Assembly (NCBI GenBank): GCA_020832825.1
Contig: JAJHRL010000001.1
Span: 1-61,445, forward strand
DNA length: 61,445 nucleotides
Direction of reading: 5' to 3'
From: Candidatus Aenigmatarchaeota archaeon
GTDB lineage: Archaea > Aenigmatarchaeota > Aenigmatarchaeia > CG10238-14 > SpSt-28
The notes below the pieces were generated by a model that was given only the letters and a program-made list of their open reading frames with translations, was not told where the DNA came from and searched no databases. Positions 44,556-55,579 of this stretch are shown piece after piece; the first letter of the stretch is position 1, and every line of letters begins with the position of its first letter. Made by a program: the position numbers and the translations under genes.

Positions 44556-46763
44556 TTAAGCAAGAGCTTGAGTTTCTGGTTTTGGAATTTCTTCGGGTAA
44601 TCCTTTCCTTTTCCTTATGGATTTAATGGTATACTCTTTTAGTTCATCAGGCAATCTCTCAAACACAATATCAACAAGACTATAAAATCCTCTACCACTA
44701 GTTAAAGATTTCAACTTCGCATCAAATCCGAAGAGCTCTGATACTGGAATTTTAGCTATTATAATCATAGTCTCTCCCTCCTCTTTCATTTCCAAAATAC
44801 TTCCTCTTCTATTCTCTATCTCTCTTGAAACAACACCCATGCTCTCATTTGGGATATCAACTCTCAGTATCTGTTTCGGTTCATAAAGCACAGCACCTGC
44901 TAGCAGCATTGCTTGTCTTATAGCATATCTTACTGCTGGCATTATTTGACCAGGACCTCTATGTACAGGATCTTCGTGCAATTCAGCATCTACTAGTTTT
45001 ACTTTGAGTTTCATGCAAGGCTCTCTTGCTAATGGTCCATCATCCATGACTTCTTTAAATGCATCTTTAATCATTTCTATTGCTTCAACTAAAAATTGAA
45101 CTCCTTTCGTTTGATCTATGAAAACGTTTTTGTTGTAAATTAGGAGAACATTTCTTGCTTCTTCTCCTTTCATTCCAGCCTTTTCCAACTTTTGGAACAA
45201 TTCTAAATTCTTCTTCTTAACCTCCATTGTACTGGGAATTTCGCCCGATCTCATAGCTTCATAGACTCCATCTTCTAATGGTTCTACAATGAAATAAAGC
45301 TTGTTATGTTTGTTTGGTGATTTGCCTTCAACAACCGGGGAGGGTTTAAGTATTGTTTCTCTGTAAACAACGATAGGCGGAGATAACTCAACATCTATTC
45401 CCATATCCTTCAGCTTATGTTCTACTTTGATTTCCAAATGAAGTTCACCTAAACCAGAAACAAGATATTCTCCAGTTTCCTGATTGATTTTAACAACCAA
45501 AGTCGGGTCTTCCTTTCCAATTTTTCTCAAAGCCTCGACAAGCTTTGGTAGATCCATAGGATTCTTAGGTTCGATAGATTTGGTAACTACTGGTTCGAAA
45601 ATATGTTTTATTTCAGCAAAAGGTTCTATAGGATAGTCAGCATCGCATAACGTTTCACCGGTAAATGCTTCAGGTATTCCAACAATTGCAACAACATTCC
45701 CTGCTGTTACTTCATCAACAGGAATTCTATTTATTCCTTTATAAACAGCAACTTGCTGTACCTTTTCTCTCTTTCTCAAGTTAACTAAATAGATTTCCTT
45801 TCCTTTAAATATTTTCCCAGAGAAAATTCGCGCAGTTGCTACAAAACCAACGTGTTCGTCAGGAACCATTTTAGTTACTATTGCTGCAAGCTTCCCATTG
45901 GCATCGCAAGCCAACATTTGCCTGCCTATTTCACTTTCAATATCCCCTTTCCAAATTTTTGGAACTCTATACTTTTGAGCTTCTAAAGGAGATGGTAAGT
46001 GTCTAACAATCATATCCAATACGACTCTATGCAGTGGTGCTTTTTTCGCAAGTTCGTCTTCCCTTCCTTCTAAAGTTAATTGAATGACTTCCTTCAATGT
46101 TACTCCAGTCTTCTGAAGAAATGGAATGGATATTGCCCATCTTTTCAATGCACTACCAATTGCTACGCTTCCATCTTTTACACTTACATACCATTTTCCT
46201 TTGAACTCGGGTGGACAGTACTTCTCGATCAAAGCATTGACATCTTTAATTATTCTTTCAAATCTTTCCATCATTTGTTCTGGAGTTAGTTTTAACTCTT
46301 TTATCAGTCTATCAGTTTTATTAATAAATAATACTGGCTTAACATACTCTCTTAAAGCCTGTCTAAATACAGTTTCGGTTTGGGGCATTATTCCCTCTAC
46401 TGCATCTACTAAAACTATTGTACCGTCTGCAGCTCTCATAGCTTTTGTAACGTCGCCACCAAAATCTACGTGACCAGGAGTATCTAGCAAATTTATCAAA
46501 TAGTCTTGGCCTTCATATTCGTGTACCATGCTAACGTTTGCTCCATAAACAGTCAATTGTCTCTTTCTTTCCTCCGGATCAAACCAAGTATACATTACTT
46601 TACCGGCCATCTCTTCTGCGAGCATTCCTGCACCAGCCATTAGGTTGTCAGTCAAAGTTGTTTTTCCATGGTGAACATGAGAACTAGTAGCAACGTTTCT
46701 TATTCTCTCCGGATGTTGCATACATTCTTTGATTCTTTCAATCATCTCTTTTTTCATACTCAT
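44556..46763 (-). CDS. fusA: Elongation factor 2
   Basis: HVHHGKTTLTD, DTPGHVDF, and the diphthamide loop HEDPVHRGPGQ. Confidence 0.97.
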   Translation of the reverse strand: MSMKKEMIERIKECMQHPERIRNVATSSHVHHGKTTLTDNLMAGAGMLAEEMAGKVMYTWFDPEERKRQLTVYGANVSMVHEYEGQDYLINLLDTPGHVDFGGDVTKAMRAADGTIVLVDAVEGIMPQTETVFRQALREYVKPVLFINKTDRLIKELKLTPEQMMERFERIIKDVNALIEKYCPPEFKGKWYVSVKDGSVAIGSALKRWAISIPFLQKTGVTLKEVIQLTLEGREDELAKKAPLHRVVLDMIVRHLPSPLEAQKYRVPKIWKGDIESEIGRQMLACDANGKLAAIVTKMVPDEHVGFVATARIFSGKIFKGKEIYLVNLRKREKVQQVAVYKGINRIPVDEVTAGNVVAIVGIPEAFTGETLCDADYPIEPFAEIKHIFEPVVTKSIEPKNPMDLPKLVEALRKIGKEDPTLVVKINQETGEYLVSGLGELHLEIKVEHKLKDMGIDVELSPPIVVYRETILKPSPVVEGKSPNKHNKLYFIVEPLEDGVYEAMRSGEIPSTMEVKKKNLELFQKLEKAGMKGEEARNVLLIYNKNVFIDQTKGVQFLVEAIEMIKDAFKEVMDDGPLAREPCMKLKVKLVDAELHEDPVHRGPGQIMPAVRYAIRQAMLLAGAVLYEPKQILRVDIPNESMGVVSREIENRRGSILEMKEEGETMIIIAKIPVSELFGFDAKLKSLTSGRGFYSLVDIVFERLPDELKEYTIKSIRKRKGLPEEIPKPETQALA

Positions 46764-46796
46764 AAATATCCACCTCTCTCTTAAAAATAATCAAAT

Positions 46797-47399
46797 TTAT
46801 CTTGCTCCTTCTGCTTCTTTTTCTATTCTCTCTTTTTCTCTTATAGCTTCACTTTTTGTAGGATTGTTTTCATAAGCACCAATAATTTCTTCAACTAATG
46901 CATCAACCATATTTGCTTTTTTTCCAAAAGCCTTCCTATATGCCGCTTGTGCTATATGCCTTAAGGCTAAATCAACTCTTCTTTGGGGCGAGGTAACTAC
47001 AGCTTTTCTAACTATTATTCCACCAACTTGATAAGCAGCAATTTCTTCTCTGATTGCGGCATTTTCTATGGCTCTAACAAAAACTTCTAAAGGATTTTTC
47101 TTTGTAATTTCGTATATTTTATCAAACGCTTTTTCCACAATTTTATAAGTTGTTTGCCATCTCCCAACAACTCTCCCAGAAGTTAAAACATGTTTTTTAC
47201 CTTTATGGCCAGGAACCATTAGATGTGTAATAAGTCTTTCAACAATATTCATTTTTGACTTATGAAATTGATACTTAGCATGTCTTCCACAAGATTTTGG
47301 AATTATTTTTGGAGTTAGGTTAATATATCTTTCTAAACCTTTATCCAAAACCTTCACATCATAAGGCCATTTGCCAAACAACTTTATTTCCTCACTCAT
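46797..47399 (-). CDS. rps7: Ribosomal protein S7
   Basis: Archaeal S7/S5e pattern (..LMV.G...GKK.., AIENAAIREE..). Confidence 0.93.
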   Translation of the reverse strand: MSEEIKLFGKWPYDVKVLDKGLERYINLTPKIIPKSCGRHAKYQFHKSKMNIVERLITHLMVPGHKGKKHVLTSGRVVGRWQTTYKIVEKAFDKIYEITKKNPLEVFVRAIENAAIREEIAAYQVGGIIVRKAVVTSPQRRVDLALRHIAQAAYRKAFGKKANMVDALVEEIIGAYENNPTKSEAIREKERIEKEAEGAR

Positions 47400-47404
47400 A
47401 AGCT

Positions 47405-47827
47405 CTACCTAGCAGGTTTTTGTTTTTTACCTTTAAGAATTTCACTCAATGCAACTCCATTAACAGCTATGACCCTGTACTTTATACCAACCATACTGCC
47501 TTTTGATCCTCCTTGGCCTCCACCAACCTTTTCTATAAGCACTTCATCATGTTCACTAATCTTATCAATTGCTCCAACTCCGGGAACATGAGCAGTAACT
47601 TGGATATTATTTTTAATCAATTGGACTCTAACACATTTTGTTAAACCAGATGCAGGTTTTCTCTGTTCGACTGCTCTCTTTTCTATTACTATACCTCTTG
47701 CCATTGGAGCTCCTTCCAATGGGTCTTTTTTCCAAAGTTGTAAAACTCTTCTTTTATACGATTGGCTAGACCATCTAAACTTTTTCCTTCTTTGTTTCAA
47801 TTTTCTTCCAGCAAATTCACCTGGCAT
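47405..47827 (-). CDS. rps12: Ribosomal protein S12
   Basis: [27 protein letters not shown]. Confidence 0.95.
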
Positions 47828-48240
47828 TACTTTATCACCAGGTTATCAATGTTATAATTTCTCTTTAAAAACTGTCTTAAGGCTTTTATATTTTTACCGT
47901 CCTTTCCTATGGCTAAGCTCTTAAACGCATTTTCCACACTGATTTCTATCGTGGTTTTCTCTTTTTCGTTTCTAATTCTTATCTCCCTTATTCCTTTTAC
48001 GCTATTTTTTAAGAAAGTAGAAACATCTTTCGAATACTCGAAAATTATTATTTTCTTTTTTAACATTTTTTCTAAGCTTTTCAAAATATAGCCATTCTCC
48101 CCAACTTTTTTCAGTTCCCCTTCTCTTGCGAGTATATAAATTCTATCATCCATTATGATACAATCTTTCACATTAATCTGGCTTGCTGTTTCGAAAAGAT
48201 TGATAACTTTAATGGTTTCTGTATCAAGTATGAATGTCAT
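47827..48240 (-). CDS. nusA: Archaeal NusA-like transcription termination factor (two KH domains)
   Basis: [14 protein letters not shown] motif, in the conserved position between L30e and S12. The Met at 48240 overlaps the L30e stop (ATGA); the track ORF starts 16 codons upstream. Confidence 0.85.
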
Positions 48241-48494
48241 TGTTCCCCCTTTACTGCGAGTGTTGTTATTGGATGTGGCCTTCCACAAATAGTGCCCAAA
48301 TCTTTGCTACTTCCTTCAAATATTAAAACATTGACGTTGCTATTCATTATAACCTTTTTTATGTGCTCTGGTGCATTTTTAGCAATGATAACAGCTTCTG
48401 CTTTATTGTTCCTTATGTATTTTAGTGTCCTCCTAAATCCAAATACAATCTTATTCTCTCTTATCGCTTTCTTTATCATTTCTTCTATGCTCAT
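48237..48494 (-). CDS. rpl30e: Ribosomal protein L30e
   Basis: [28 protein letters not shown] pattern, in the conserved position after rpoA''. Confidence 0.9.
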
Positions 48495-49581
48495 TTTCTT
48501 CTCCCCTCATTATTAACTCAAACATTCCTGTACCTACGGGAGCAGGCTGACCTACCATTACATTTTCGAATAAACCTTTAAACTCATCAACTTCATTCTT
48601 AATAGAGGCACGGATCAAATGCTTTATAGTTTCTTCAAATGCTGCCCTTGAGAGAACGGAAGCTTTAGCACCTGCAACGCCGTACCTTCCTATAGAGCTA
48701 ATCTCGCCACTCCATGTCATTACATCGGCTAACAACAGTAAATATCTTATATCTACATCTAGCCCTTGCTCCTGCATAGTTTTATATGCTTCTTTTACAA
48801 TAACGTTCCTTGCCGCTTCTATACCTAAGACCTCATAAACTTCGTAAATATCATTTGAGATAGTTTTACGTTCATTAACTTCCTCTAATTTCAAAACTTC
48901 TCTTAAATTGGAGCCTACTGTCTGTAGAACCCAATTCTCTCCCTCTTTTCTAATAATTGCTGCTGTTATACCTTCTATACCTTCAACGAGGATATTGCCA
49001 ACCTCTACTTTTAACTTTTGTAGATCAGAAAAACTTAGCTCCTCTTTCGGGCGGATAATAATTGAGTTCTCTTTTACCTTTACTTCCACTTTCCTTGCTA
49101 TATGCTCTTTAATTGCCTTCTTCACTTTTTCTAACTCTTTTTCCTCCCCTATCTCAACTATCAAAGTGTTCTCCCCTATGTCAATAGATATGGACTTTGC
49201 AACATCTTTTATTCTTCTCTCAACTATTTTAAAAGCAAGTCTTTCTGCGTCTTCTTTAGTGTTATACTCTTTCTTGAGATATACAGTCATCATAGGAGTT
49301 TCTATCTTCCTCTTTGCATCAAAGATTTCTATTAAGCGTGGCAGACCGAAAGTAACCTTGATGCCAGCGGCTCCAGCCAAATGATACGTTCTCATAGTTA
49401 GTTGAGTCGCAGGCTCGGAAATACTTTGGGCGGTTAAAATTCCTATAGCTTCTCCCGGTTCAAATCTGCTATTTAGATACACTCTTTCTACCTCTTTTTC
49501 TAGTCTTTTTCTTTCTTCCTCCCCAAGTTTTAACTCCTTTGCTACCTTGTCTATTTCCTCAACTATTTTCTTAGGAAGCAT
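48451..49581 (-). CDS. rpoA2: RNA polymerase subunit A''
   Basis: [17 protein letters not shown], and GQPAPVGTG near the C-terminus. ATG at 49581 is preceded by GGAGG (comp. 49589-49593); the track uses a TTG at 49599. Confidence 0.95.
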
Positions 49582-52500
49582 AAAACAACCTCCTTGCAAT
49601 TTCTCTTACGTTTATTCCTTCTCTAGTAATTTTAGAGGGATCTAAACCATCTTCGCATGGAAGGAATTGAATTATTCTATTGGCCGCATCTCTTACTGTA
49701 CCATCGTACGCAACTTTCAAATCTTGTAATGCGCCTATAAGCCTTCTCTCCATGTATCCAGAATGTCTAGTTTTAAGACTTTTATCCATTAGACTTTCTC
49801 TGGAATTCATGCTATCAAAGAAAAATTCAAACACATTTAAACCATCTCTAAACCCACGTGCAACAAATCCTTTCGAAGCTAGACTTCTGTCATCTCTTTT
49901 GAAGTGCGGGAAGGTTCGTTTGTAATATCCTCTTTCTATTCTTTCTCCCATTATCATTTCTTGGCCTATCAGCCCGACAATTTGCAAAAGATTAATAAGA
50001 CTGCCTCTTGCACCACATTTAACCATGTCTAGTGCAAACGACTGCTTTATGCCTTTCTCTATTACGCTCATGCTTTCGTTTAAGCATCTCGCTATTCTTT
50101 CTTTTATCATGTTTTCAAGGGTCTCTTCGGTAGTTCTTCCTACCATCGGTAAAAGTTCGCCTTTATTAAATTTTTCAATCATCTCGTTTACATCTTTCTC
50201 AGTTTTCTTAATAATTTTTGCTATTTCCTCTTTTACTATCGGATCTACATCCAAGTCAGAAATACCAAGCGTAAATCCTTTCATATCGAGGTAGTTAATT
50301 CCTAGCAATCCAATTTTGTAGATGAAGTCTTTTACAAATTCCCTTCCGTAGTTTTTCTCAAGCTTATCGAGAATCTTGCCGCCTTCGGCGCCTATTCCGT
50401 TCTTTTCTATTTCACCCTGGATAAGCATACCATTTTCAATTTTCACAATACCAGTCTTTCCTTTATATTCTATAGAGAAATCTTTTGGCAAAAATAGGCT
50501 GAATATTTCTTTTCCGCTGAATTCTTGTTTTTCTGGGATTTGAATTTCGGTATCCACACTTCTTATAAGTCTGATAGCATCTTTCCTATTAATTTTAGTG
50601 TCATCTTTCGTTAACAAGTAAAGGCCTGTAATCTCATCTCTTATTGGTCCTATTATTGGTGCGGAGTATCTTGGACTTCTTATGTTTTTCTCAACAACAG
50701 CAAGAAGTTCAGCTTCAGCTCTCGCCTCTTCCGTTTGAGGTACGTGAAGATTCATTTCATCTCCGTCAAAATCAGCATTGTAAGGGGGACACACCGCAAC
50801 ATTTAAACGAAATGTTAAAAATGGCATTACTCTTACTTTGTGTGTCATCATACTCATTCTATGAAGGCTTGGTTGTCTATTGAAAAGAACGGGATCACCA
50901 TCTATCAAGTGTCTTTCAACAATGTAGCCTACGCTTAACTCTTTTGCTATTTCCTCCTTATTAGTTTCTAGTATTCTCTTTCTTTTACCATCAGGTCTAA
51001 TCACGTAGTTTGCCCCAGGCCAAACTGTCGGACCGTTTAATACGAACTTTCTTAACTCTTCTATGTTTCTTTCGTCTACTCTAACTGGAATAGTTAAATC
51101 TTTTGCTACAACCTCTGGAACACCGACTTCATTGATTGCAATTCTAGGATCAGGTGAGATAACAGTTCTTGCGCAGAAATTAACTCTTTTTCCTAATAAG
51201 TTTCCTCTAAACCTTCCTTCTTTAGTTTTTAATCTTTGCGTTAAAGTTTTTAGCACTCTTCCAGATCTATGTCTGGCAGGAGGAACTCCAGTTAATTCGT
51301 TATCAAAATAAGTCGCAACATGATATTGTAAGAGTTCCCAAAGATCGTTAAGTAAAAATTCTGGCGCCCCCAATTCTAAGTTCTCTTTAAACCTATCGTT
51401 TATTCTAACAATTTCAACTAGTTTATGAGTTAAATCATCTTCACTTCTTTCTCCTGTTTCTAGTGTTATAGAAGGTCTCACTGTTACTGGTGGTATGGGT
51501 AGAACGGTAATAACAAGCCATTCCGGTCTTATCTTTAGATTTAAAATCTTCAAATCCTCATCAGGAATTTTTTCTAGTCTTTCTCTCACGTCAGCAGGAG
51601 TTAGTACTTTGTTTCCTTCTACAAATGTATATGGTTTAACAAATTTTATTTCCTTCTGCTCAGTCTTGCAATATGGACACTTCTTCAATGCAATTTTTTC
51701 GATTTCTTTCCAGGATATTTTCTCTTTTTTTCTTGCTTCCTCATCTATGAGCAATCTTCCACATTTTCTACATGTTATCTTTAGTAAGAAATGTATAAAC
51801 TTCGTATAATGAGGATGAATTACAGGCTTAACTAATTCTAAATGACCAAAATGGCCAGGACATTCTCCAACGCTAGCGCCACAAACTCTACATCTTATTC
51901 CAGGTTCGACTGTTCCAAGTCGCGGGTCCATTACTCCGCCTTCGATTGGGTATCCTTCTTCATCATAAATATCTATCTTGGTTATGCTTGCAAACGACAT
52001 TTTTCTTATAGTTTCCGGATCGAGAATGCTAAATTCAATTTTGCTGATTTTGCCTTCTTCATTTATAACAAGCTTAGGATAAATGAGTAAACTTTTTAAT
52101 TCATCAAGCATAAGCTTGAAAGCATGGCTCATTTCTACATCGATTATTTCTGCATCATCTTTACAAATAGGGCAAAAGTATCTATTTTTAATTTTATCAT
52201 GGACTGCTATCATTCCACATCTATTGCATACAGGTAAGACAATTTTGTCTGAATCAAACCTTTCTTTAAGAGCTAACACAGCACCATGGGCCAACAAACA
52301 ATCTTTTTCCATCTCTCCAAGTCTTAAACCCCCCTCTTTACTTCTTCCTTCTGTAGGCTGTCTAGTTAGGAGAGTTACAGGGCCCCTAGCTCTTGACTGA
52401 AGTTTATTAGAAACAAGATGATCAAGCTTCATATAGAATGAACAACCTATAAATATCTTCGCTTCGAATTTCCTTCCAGTTTTCCCATCGTACATAACCT

Positions 52501-53854
52501 CTTTTCCACTCTCTTCAAATCCCAATCTCTTTAATGCTTCTCTTAACTCTTTCTCGTTGGTTGGATTAAAAGCAGGAGCTTTAATATACCTAGCTGAAAT
52601 AGCAGCAACCTTACCTGCTAAAATTTCTAGAAGTTGTCCTACTGTCATTCTGGAAGGTAGTCCATGAGGATTAAAAATAATATCAGGAACTATACCACTT
52701 TCCGTAAATGGCATGTCTTCATGCGGAACAAGTAAGCCAACAACTCCTTTTTGGCCATGACGTGATGCAAACTTATCACCAATTTCCGGTTTTTTCAAGT
52801 CTCTAACAACAACCTTCACAAGCTTCGTACCATCTGCAGTTTGCGTTAAATATACTCTATCAACTATTCCTTTATCTCCATGTCTTAGTCTTACCGAGGT
52901 CTCCCTTAGATTTTCTCCTGTTAAGAAAATATCCGCCTTGCCTAAGAAACGAAGTGGCGAAACTCTTCCGATAAGTACTTGGTCTGATTTAACCTCTGTC
53001 TCAGGGTTAACAATTCCATCTTCCGGCAGATGTTTATATTCGTCTTCGCCAGCATACCCTCTTATTCCAGGCTGAGGAATACCAATTACGTCTTCTTGCC
53101 CGCCAAGATATTTCTTTTCTTCAGCTTCATATGTTCTATACATGTAACTCCAAAACATTCCTCTTTCAATTGAAGATTTATTGATCACGATTGCATCCTC
53201 AATATTATAACCTTCGTAGGTTGTTACTGCGATAACAACGTTTGTACCATGTGGATAGTTTTCCGTCATTTCACAGATTTCATGAATATAAGCCTCTACT
53301 AATGGTCTTTGCGGATAGACTAAAATGTTAGATTTGCTATCAACCCTGTTTAAAAAATTGAGTGCATAAATCCCGATTGATTGATCTCCCATTTTCGCTC
53401 CATAGTTGACTCTATCTCCTCTGTTAAACTCAGGATATGGAACAAACTGCGCGGAAAACCCAAAAATTACGGCAGGGTCAATTTCTAAATGTGTATGTTC
53501 TTTAGTAACTTCTTCTGGTCTTGTTGCAATGTATGCGTTTTCTTCTTCTTCAGCATCAAGATATTCTATTATTCCATTCTTTATCAAATCCGAAAAAGAA
53601 ATTTCTCCCTTTTTCACCTTTTCAAGGATCTCATTTGTTAATTTAGGAACACCATTTTCTACAACTATCAACGGCCTTATTATTCTTCCTGCTGATGTTA
53701 GAATTCTTACCTCATTCAAATGTTCATGGTAAGCAACATTAACATAGTAAGGGATTTTACCCTCTCTTCTCATCTTCCTTACTTTTTCCACAAATTCTCT
53801 TGGGTTTTCCACGCTTCCAACAAGCTCTCCATCTATGAATACGCTAGCTTTCAT
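49571..53854 (-). CDS. rpoB1/rpoA1: RNA polymerase subunits B' and A' encoded as one continuous ORF (fusion)
   Basis: Residues 1 to ~597 are B' ([13 protein letters not shown], zinc ribbon [28 protein letters not shown]). Residues ~600-1427 are A' ([40 protein letters not shown]). There is no stop at the junction (comp. ~52055-52070). Confidence 0.9.
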
Positions 53855-55331
53855 TTTTAACCCCCAACATTTCCAGTATCGGCTTTATTTCTTTCCTATC
53901 AACTTTTGTTGTTATGGTTGCTGAGATGGCAAGATACTTTCTTAACCCTATGTTTGCTCCTTCTGGTGTTTGTGTAACGCACAACTTACCAAAGTGAGTA
54001 GGATGAAGCTCCCTTGCTTCAAAATGTTCTTGAGTAGAGGATAAAGGAGAAACCACATTTCTCATATGTGTGATTGTTTTATTCCAGCTACTTCTATCCA
54101 ACCTTTGTGTTACTCCTGTTCTCCCTCCTATCCAAGTTCCAACAGCCATAGCGGAAACAATCTGGTTAGTGAGAATAGCGTTTTCAACTACAGCCTGCAA
54201 GGGTGGTAATTTTCCCCTTCTCGTAAGTTTTTGATAATTATAGTTCATCCTTACTATCAATCCCCACTTTCCTAATAAGATTGATCTAAGCAACAATTCC
54301 AATAGATCGCCAGCCATTTTAATTCTTTTGTTAGCGTAATGATCTACGTCATCTTCTTCTATTCTTCCAAGATGAAGTTTCAAAAGCTTTTCAATGGCTT
54401 TAGCAATGAAAAGAGCTTTTGTTAATCTGTTTTCTGGTTCCTGACCCAAATGAGGCAATAAATACTTGTCTATCATTCTAATTGCCTGTTTCTTCCTTAC
54501 AGATTTCTGGGGAATGCGTAAATGTTTTCCTAACTCATCTATTGCTTCTTCCGCGTTTCTTATTGGATATTCAAGTATGTTGATTAAAAACAACTCCTGG
54601 ATTTCTTCATCTAAAGAAATAGCCTCCAATATTTCCTTATCCTTTTCTAAACCTAAAGCTTTCAAAATCACAACTATCGGAATTCTTAGCACGTTCGCAA
54701 AAGTTATATATATTTCCCCGCTTCTTTTCCTTTCTATTAAATGTTTTTGAACAAAACCCTCTTTCTCTGAGTGTATTCTTGCAATCTCAGGAATTGTTGG
54801 GTCATTTGTTTTCTCAACTATTATTCTATCGGTTGCAATTTCCTCAACTAGCATTAAGATTCGTTCAGTTCCATTAATTATGAAATAGCCGCCTGGATCA
54901 TCAGGATCCTCACCAGCCTGTATAAGTTCATTTCTACTCATCCTAGAAAGAGGACAGAATTTAGATTTTACCATTACGGGTAGATCCCCTATCTCAATCA
55001 TCATGGGTTTGCTTTCTATACCATTAAGTACTTGTGTCATTTCGACGTACATGGGAGCAGCGTATGTTAAATTTCTTATCCTTGCTTCCATAGGAAGAAT
55101 CTTTCTTATTGAACCATCAGCCTCCCTAACTCTTGGTTCACCTAATTCAAATTTTCCAAGCCTTATCTCTAGCTCTCCTATTTCTGGAATTTCAGGTTTT
55201 ATTTTCCCTATACTCTTGATAAGCCGTGGTAGTCTTCTCTCTACGAACTCGTTAAAAGATTCGATTTGAAAGTTGACAAGACCTTTCTCTTTCAAGTATG
55301 CTTTCATCAATATAGTAAATGCATTCTCCAT
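53844..55331 (-). CDS. rpoB2: RNA polymerase subunit B''
   Basis: The N-terminal half of subunit B (..GGYFIINGTERIL.., ..HPTHFGKLCVTQTPEGANIGL..). Overlaps the B' start by 11 nt. Confidence 0.95.
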   Translation of the reverse strand: MENAFTILMKAYLKEKGLVNFQIESFNEFVERRLPRLIKSIGKIKPEIPEIGELEIRLGKFELGEPRVREADGSIRKILPMEARIRNLTYAAPMYVEMTQVLNGIESKPMMIEIGDLPVMVKSKFCPLSRMSRNELIQAGEDPDDPGGYFIINGTERILMLVEEIATDRIIVEKTNDPTIPEIARIHSEKEGFVQKHLIERKRSGEIYITFANVLRIPIVVILKALGLEKDKEILEAISLDEEIQELFLINILEYPIRNAEEAIDELGKHLRIPQKSVRKKQAIRMIDKYLLPHLGQEPENRLTKALFIAKAIEKLLKLHLGRIEEDDVDHYANKRIKMAGDLLELLLRSILLGKWGLIVRMNYNYQKLTRRGKLPPLQAVVENAILTNQIVSAMAVGTWIGGRTGVTQRLDRSSWNKTITHMRNVVSPLSSTQEHFEARELHPTHFGKLCVTQTPEGANIGLRKYLAISATITTKVDRKEIKPILEMLGVKNES

Positions 55332-55333
55332 TT

Positions 55334-55579
55334 CTACCCTTCCCCCTCCACAACAACTCTATAATAAACGGACTCTCCTGTAACCTCATTAAATCTGGTT
55401 ATTTTTATCACATCACCAGGTTTAGCATTTAGTATTTTTACCTGAGGATCAGTGGTATAAATTCTAGGGAAATTTTTTAAGCTTCCATATCTTCTTATAA
55501 GTTCCTCTTTCTCTTTTTCGCTAATTATTTCGTGTTTAGGTACTAACTCATGTTTAGAAACATCTATCTCTTTCTTCAC
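55334..55579 (-). CDS. rpoH: RNA polymerase subunit H
   Basis: HELVPKHEIISEKEKEEL..., PGDVIKITR. GTG start with GAGGTGG upstream. First gene of the rpo cluster. Confidence 0.92.
   Translation of the reverse strand: MKKEIDVSKHELVPKHEIISEKEKEELIRRYGSLKNFPRIYTTDPQVKILNAKPGDVIKITRFNEVTGESVYYRVVVEGEG

Follow-up and report, generated by a model that had tools for sequence, protein, structure and literature searches.

We describe a fused RNA polymerase (RNAP) gene, rpoB'–rpoA', in a 61,445-nucleotide stretch of a Candidatus Aenigmatarchaeota genome (GenBank assembly GCA_020832825.1, contig JAJHRL010000001.1; hereafter the window). Archaeal B (or B''/B') and A' are normally separate genes with short overlaps or gaps; here B' and A' occupy a single open reading frame (ORF) of 1,427 residues. 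The evidence as a whole is best explained, at a probability that we put at about 85%, by a genuine, vertically inherited fusion giving a 162-kDa product in an otherwise normal RNAP. At the level of the gene, what we observe directly is the fusion itself, its recovery from independent assemblies, how far it is conserved and recurs, and the mutational routes that lead to it.

One reading frame across the B'–A' boundary

The gene divides into two modules that meet near residue 600:

49571..53854, minus strand: fused rpoB'–rpoA' (Rpo2C–Rpo1N), 1,427 aa, ATG start, stop codon at 49571..49573 (ORF list and Pfam)
52055..53854, minus strand: B' module, residues 1–600, with Pfam Rpb2_4/5/6/7 at residues 5–596
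52040..52069, minus strand: junction, residues 596–605, without a stop codon and without ATG, GTG or TTG (start-codon scan)
49574..52054, minus strand: A' module, residues 601–1427, with Rpb1_1–4 complete and positions 1–66 of Rpb1_5

A first-pass annotation, made from the sequence alone, had read B' and A' as one 1,427-aa polypeptide. The ORF list and the Pfam order agree with it: Rpb2_4–7 (residues 5–596) are followed by Rpb1_1–5 (602–1403), all well over gathering scores. The calculated mass is 162.3 kDa, comprising 67.7 kDa of B' and 94.6 kDa of A'. Membership of Rpo2C is borne out by Rpb2 domains 4, 5, 6 and 7 in order, then the clamp zinc ribbon (C-terminal, CNRCG..CPIC) and a YPK tail; membership of Rpo1N by Rpb1 domains 1–4 and the start of domain 5, the clamp zinc sites (CRVCG..CPGHFGH) and the catalytic metal-A motif. 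The motifs that the annotation had quoted, the A' zinc sites among them, are present in the translation, and all catalytic and zinc motifs are intact. Over its C-terminal 200 residues the B' part is 66–74% identical to 598-aa B' proteins of Aenigmatarchaeota; unfused B' relatives are 598–602 aa long and end in ..KEE or ..REE.

Re-reading the minus strand at the junction returned the codons as they had been transcribed (tta ctc att tat cct aag ctt gtt ata aat gaa gaa ggc aaa atc agc aaa att gaa ttt). As had also been claimed, neither a stop nor a methionine lies between the modules. A scan of residues 560–640 places the flanking canonical in-frame starts at M575 and M582, in a conserved B' helix, and at M619, in a conserved A' N-terminal block, and finds no in-frame ATG, GTG or TTG at residues 583–618 of the fused ORF. 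Stop-codon readthrough or recoding is irrelevant to a junction that lacks any stop codon. The frame is thereby uninterrupted across the boundary between the second-largest and the largest subunit, the defining feature of a β–β' type fusion. The window does not hold a complete second-largest and a complete largest subunit in one chain; B'' and A'' are separate genes.

Replication, recurrence and origin

The same 1,427-aa ORF is also called on an ENA contig (ERZ27247216:k141_132892, 96 kb). Four further contigs (10.6–71 kb; JGI, Logan) carry 1,427-aa ORFs that are 99.2–99.8% identical to that of the window, and 13 more carry 1,428-aa ORFs of a neighbouring cluster; over the junction segment, the representative of that cluster is 91% identical. 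For distribution at species level, a 401-aa junction segment was searched by tblastn against one genome per GTDB species. At each of the best 80 of at least 457 loci, the B' frame was walked beyond the end of the B' match, and the junctions were then aligned. This comparison, which the first-pass annotation had proposed as a check, found both an unfused sister clade and an in-frame fusion in 43 of the best 80 species loci, a frequency inflated because tblastn ranking favours fused and same-frame loci; the existence and conservation of the fusion are unaffected by that bias. A JGI contig (L002) is fused as well, and the fused ORFs end at the normal A' end. Most carriers are labelled Candidatus Aenigmatarchaeota, with 51–90% amino-acid identity to the window, and their sources span many projects and assemblers (SPAdes NODE_, MEGAHIT k141_, and scaffolds of hot-spring, groundwater and sediment studies).

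A word-indexed protein search had suggested that the fusion was nearly unique (one fused protein, P0001, among 120 matches listed); the genome scan and a cluster look-up overturned this. An exhaustive search of representatives places all fused Aenigmatarchaeota forms in one 50% cluster (P0121) and gives no distribution. Two loci show local irregularities. The first ~150 bases of L002 (1–222) are the reverse complement of bases ~150–222, a hairpin-type assembly artefact at the contig end that truncates B' and is distant from the fused junction at ~950–985. At L045 (6207–6312), an unfused member of Aenigmatarchaeota, the B' match lies in two frames ~100 nt apart; a frameshift within B', a small insertion and an assembly error are the candidate causes.

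Fused and unfused taxa are interleaved on a neighbour-joining (NJ) tree of B' only, which holds 191 taxa: 45 fused (the B' parts of fused loci and P0121) and 146 unfused (loci and 598-aa B' proteins). The window falls in a group of ten fused taxa (L001, L003–L009, L042 and P0121) whose sister group is unfused (P0004, P0009, P0011, P0014 and P0072). Within this clade the junction motif (V/I)(N/D)(E/D)EG(K/R/E)(I/V) is found in the window and in eight of nine related species genomes; L004 differs at the first position only (IINEEGKI). The ten fused taxa have the core EEG(K/R)I in common.

The unfused sister genes overlap out of frame (..GAA GAA TAA TG CCG CTG ATA GAT AAA ATA GAA.., where the last A of TAA is the first of the A' ATG), and a second overlap type in that group is of the ATGA kind (..GAA GAA TGA TGC CG..). 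The window reads ..GAA GAA GGC AAA ATC AGC AAA ATT GAA.. at the same site: relative to the sister it is shortened by a net 5 nt, stop and start are gone and A' lies in the B' frame, at a net loss of one residue. With TAATG or ATGA overlaps in the sister clade, fusion in the window clade required an indel. A second fused clade took another route. Unfused L054 has AGT GGT TAA ATG ATA where fused L047 has AGC GGA AAA ATG ATT and fused L050 has AGT GGA AGA ATG ATT, so that one substitution turned the stop codon into Lys or Arg. In other members of this clade, CTA, CTG, TTA or TTG now stands in place of the old ATG.

Fitch parsimony on the fused and unfused states counts 14 changes on the NJ tree and 10–15 (median 13) on 100 bootstrap trees, against ~41 with shuffled states; the fused state is therefore heritable yet strongly homoplastic. 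Common in Aenigmatarchaeota, the fusion arose or was lost at least about ten times. Across all 45 fused loci, 12–15 residues separate the YPK of B' from the xF of A'. The junction is free of in-frame ATG, GTG and TTG in 22 of the 45. At L077 (5310–5341), a metagenome-assembled genome (MAG) labelled Candidatus Nanohaloarchaea, B' and A' are fused in frame through a different, longer junction (..PENESGGNMKEIKF..) with a relic ATG kept; this fusion probably arose on its own, outside the main fused clades.

Other subunit boundaries vary as well. A subclade has B'' and B' in a single ORF; nine of its loci have a separate A', and 13 loci carry B''–B'–A' as a single ORF. Eight of these ORFs are complete, at 1,910–1,932 aa (L032, L038, L039, L044, L052, L053, L057 and L082), and five are cut by contig ends (L046, L047, L050, L062 and L071). 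Pfam finds Rpb2_1–7 and then Rpb1_1–5 in L032 (3301–9051, 1,916 aa) and L082 (3295–9093, 1,932 aa). Taken together, the nine loci with an unsplit B and a separate A' and the 13 BA' loci indicate that the B split was secondarily closed in this subclade. Aenigmatarchaeota therefore have four architectures: B''|B'|A', B''|B'A' (the window type, 31 loci), B|A' and BA'. The first-pass annotation had called a B'–A' fusion alongside split B and A unusual. The B''|B'A' arrangement is confirmed in the window; as for rarity, the fusion is common in Aenigmatarchaeota, and other members go further with B''–B'–A'. In the B-split fused species the fused ORF measures 1,426–1,465 aa.

The A'/A'' boundary is split in all loci where A'' could be examined. 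In L082 (9169–11631) the A'' gene is 820 aa long and contains an intein (Pfam Intein_splicing and LAGLIDADG_3); L019, L030, L039 and L071 have ~1.5 kb extra between the A' end and the A'' match, probably the same insertion.

Structural fit of the join and fate of the product

Searched with phmmer against solved archaeal RNAPs, the junction segment ends its B alignments at residues 1115–1121 (chains of 1,117–1,131 aa) and begins its A'/Rpo1N alignments at residues 3–8. The B' part aligns to Pfu B 914–1115 and Sso B 916–1118, 2–6 residues short of their C-termini. The two sets of alignments meet near window residue 600. The native tails thus form the join, with no inserted linker; the 3–5-residue linker (V-I-N-E-E) that the first-pass annotation had proposed is not borne out. 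The best match, 3qqc_A (E = 1.3e-81), runs through the junction with one one-residue gap.

This entry is the Pfu rClamp of Martinez-Rucobo et al. (2011), in which B 1053–1115, a short Gly/Ala/Ser linker, A' 3–318, a second linker and A'' 334–371 are combined (PMC3094117); it folded, bound Spt4/5 stoichiometrically and crystallised (PMC3094117). Its engineered junction, ..PKLNLSE-GG-KVIGSIEF.. (PKLNLSEGGKVIGSIEF), has the same length as that of the window within one residue, and both the length and the sequence of the window junction fit the B–A' clamp fusion of known structure, judged by the 3QQC alignment and the 12–15-residue spacing. Like the window gene, rClamp runs from the B C-terminus to the A' N-terminus, with a two-residue spacer. 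Unlike it, rClamp was designed, as a fragment of 381 residues with a piece of A'' included; it lacks catalytic function and is no natural full-length subunit.

The ancestor would have had adjacent rpoB' and rpoA' genes overlapping by 1–4 nt out of frame; a small indel would then have deleted the B' stop and the A' start, bringing both into one frame. In the predicted 162-kDa chain, the C-terminal clamp element of B' would continue, by way of the native tails and without an added linker, directly into the N-terminal clamp core of A'. Such a tether should leave the fold undisturbed, because both termini adjoin in the clamp of every multisubunit RNAP. Judged from sequence, the gene is probably translated as one stable chain in an active enzyme, which would assemble as B'' + B'A' + A'' + small subunits and work as any archaeal RNAP. 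The tether may enforce 1:1 stoichiometry and pre-assemble the clamp, a putative benefit to assembly. Its selective effect is probably small, since the fusion is gained by one point mutation or indel, is easily lost and has undergone repeated transitions in the phylum. Enzyme function is most likely unchanged.

The genes around the fusion are as follows:

53844..55331, minus strand: rpoB'' (Rpo2N), separate, 495 aa, with Rpb2_1/2/3; 11-nt overlap with the fused-gene start, in another frame
48451..49581, minus strand: rpoA'' (Rpo1C), separate, 376 aa from the ATG at 49581, with Rpb1_5 positions 67–265; 11-nt overlap with the fused-gene end, in another frame
55334..55579, minus strand: rpoH (Rpb5 C-terminal domain, PF01191), first gene of the conserved H–B''–B'A'–A'' operon
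44556..48494, minus strand: downstream L30e/L7Ae-family gene, NusA-like KH protein, S12, S7 and EF-2 (ORF list and domains)

This gene order is that of the standard archaeal rpo–'streptomycin' operon, which puts the fused gene at its normal chromosomal locus. At the gene level the first-pass annotation was right to see a natural covalent tether with B''/B' and A'/A'' still split in the same operon, since separate B'' and A'' genes are found. NCBI models a separate 837-aa "subunit A'" (MCC5994029.1) that starts at the ATT codon of I591 (window 52082–52084), within the B' motif L-I-Y-P-K. JGI names the full 1,427-aa ORFs "subunit A'". Between the ATT-start model and this naming, the fusion is present in public databases and masked by annotation.

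If an error in sequencing or assembly had removed a B'–A' stop codon or frameshift from the contig, the organism would possess two genes, an alternative that the first-pass annotation had itself raised. In favour of this, the window comes from a short-read metagenome assembly (MEGAHIT k141), separate 598-aa B' genes are found in many of its Aenigmatarchaeota relatives, and in same-frame arrangements a single base change suffices. Such an artefact is refuted by the full-length ORF on 17 other contigs from other samples and by the fusion in 43 species-level genomes of unrelated projects; moreover, the junction motif is kept over the 10-taxon clade at 77–91% identity, and the change relative to the sister clade is a multi-base indel with substitutions, not one miscalled base. 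We consider this explanation practically negligible. A decaying copy is very improbable too. Only 61 kb of the genome are visible, and the fused ORF could in principle be a pseudogene-like relic with a functional split set elsewhere, but it stands in a canonical rpoH–B''–B'–A'–A''–L30e–NusA–S12–S7–EF2 operon, keeps every catalytic and zinc motif and has Pfam scores equal to those of normal subunits. Neutral decay would not have kept the length so constant in the B-split fused species.

The main rival accepts the fused gene and keeps the proteins apart: free A' and/or B' would arise by non-canonical internal initiation (for example, at ATT) or by site-specific proteolysis of the linker. It draws on the NCBI model, on the roughly half of fused lineages that keep a relic ATG or TTG at the former A' start, and on the unfused genomes whose junctions were read, where overlaps couple downstream translation tightly to the upstream gene. 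However, the window clade has no A' start codon; GTG or TTG occurs in only three of its ten loci, at conserved L/V positions of the B' tail. The ATT of I591 sits inside conserved L-I-Y-P-K, so that a product initiated there would carry B' residues, and it looks like homology-driven annotation. No conserved cleavage motif is found, the linker varying in sequence between clades at a fixed length, and the decay of the relic ATG to CTA, CTG or TTA in several lineages indicates that it is dispensable. Separate proteins are accordingly unlikely in the window clade, and overall we give this explanation a small chance, well above that of an artefact or a decaying copy.

Several points nonetheless weigh against a single-chain product of a widespread fusion. 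Besides the inflated tblastn frequency and the ATT-start model of NCBI, an in-frame ATG, GTG or TTG survives in the junction at 23 of the 45 fused loci, and internal initiation there could still give free A' in those lineages. The carriers are all uncultured MAGs, in which the fusion is seen here at the gene level, and the NJ trees are based on a single protein. An AlphaFold (AF2) model of residues 530–905, built on a 27-row alignment, has low global confidence (pLDDT 67, pTM 0.47), and its top Foldseek match, 3qqc_A, has a TM of only 0.27; in this low-confidence model the junction blocks have pLDDT 84–86, with β-strands either side of the NEEG turn. A genuine fusion expressed as one chain remains the explanation that we prefer.

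Known polymerase fusions and implications

The same join is known in bacteria and apparently has not been described before in archaea; we found no description of an archaeal B'–A' or B–A' fusion in the open-access literature. Bacterial β–β' (rpoB–rpoC) fusions occur in Helicobacter/Wolinella and in Wolbachia, and the β C-terminus and β' N-terminus are spatially adjacent. As in the window, these fusions lead from the second-largest subunit, at its C-terminus, into the N-terminus of the largest, inside the clamp, between genes that were adjacent in an operon beforehand; they are likewise lineage-specific in a polymerase that is otherwise standard. Unlike them, the window fusion is archaeal and, because B''/B' and A'/A'' stay split, takes in only half of B (the C-terminal part) and two-thirds of A (the N-terminal part), leaving a large-subunit set of three chains (56 + 162 + 43 kDa, predicted) that has no bacterial equivalent. 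The Aenigmatarchaeota fusion also arose many times, not once, and we know it from gene sequences. The three-chain arrangement is apparently novel, and the recurrence apparently unusually frequent.

An engineered E. coli β::β' tether was reportedly functional (Severinov et al., J Biol Chem, 1997), and H. pylori with artificially separated β and β' is reported to be viable (Raudonikiene et al., Mol Microbiol, 1999). Further literature on bacterial rpoB–rpoC fusions and the tether includes Zakharova et al. (J Bacteriol, 1999). A tether that functions and a split that is viable, taken with how often the fusion is gained and lost in the present trees, suggest a near-neutral or mildly beneficial change and not a new function.

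Archaeal RNAPs have other polymorphisms: rpoB is split in Euryarchaeota and DPANN, rpoA is split, and A' and A'' are secondarily fused in Pacearchaeota (Da Cunha et al. 2017, PMC5484517). The window resembles these cases in that an adjacent RNAP gene boundary is gained or lost while the enzyme core is unchanged, again in DPANN with small, fast-evolving genomes. Whereas they rejoin or split one ancestral subunit, the window fusion joins two different subunits; and whereas RNAP splits and fusions are called rare (Da Cunha et al. 2017, PMC5484517), there are at least ten transitions within one phylum here. Arguments about deep archaeal phylogeny have taken such events for rare genomic changes (PMC5484517). 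The transitions counted here and the secondary re-fusion of B'' and B' advise against uncritical use of split and fusion characters.

At the gene level, then, the archaeal RNAP clamp can accommodate, and has gained on repeated occasions, a covalent B–A' tether, the archaeal counterpart of the Helicobacter/Wolbachia fusion, combined with B and A splits. A bolder and rather doubtful proposal is that the B/A' boundary is an evolutionary hotspot, at which tethering has been repeatedly selected in genome-reduced, host-dependent archaea, culminating in the ~1,920-aa natural B–A' chains. Those chains would hold both double-psi β-barrels in one polypeptide. Were the hotspot proposal true, RNAP split/fusion characters used as deep phylogenetic markers would be highly homoplastic; were the tether truly to aid assembly or stoichiometry, these lineages would amount to natural experiments in which a multisubunit RNAP is condensed towards a single-chain enzyme. 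For recombinant work on archaeal RNAP, the natural junction sequences are ready templates for constructs that unite large subunits in one chain. Mislabelled fused genes can disturb the extraction of the rpoB/rpoA markers on which DPANN phylogenomics and completeness estimates draw.

Some records carry unexpected taxon labels: "uncultured bacterium" (L004), "Heimdallarchaeota" (L016), "Micrarchaeota" (L040) and "Methanosarcinales" (L073). Judged by their RNAP operons, which nest in Aenigmatarchaeota or in other clades of DPANN, these MAGs may have been mis-binned or mislabelled.

The search of representatives also brought up two unrelated, divergent proteins, P0160 (1,665 aa) and P0193 (2,214 aa), possibly viral or eukaryotic, which have Rpb2 and then Rpb1 domains in one chain. 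They share 35–38% identity with the window junction; one of them, on contigs of up to 79 kb, is called 'RNA polymerase II subunit RPB2' by JGI.

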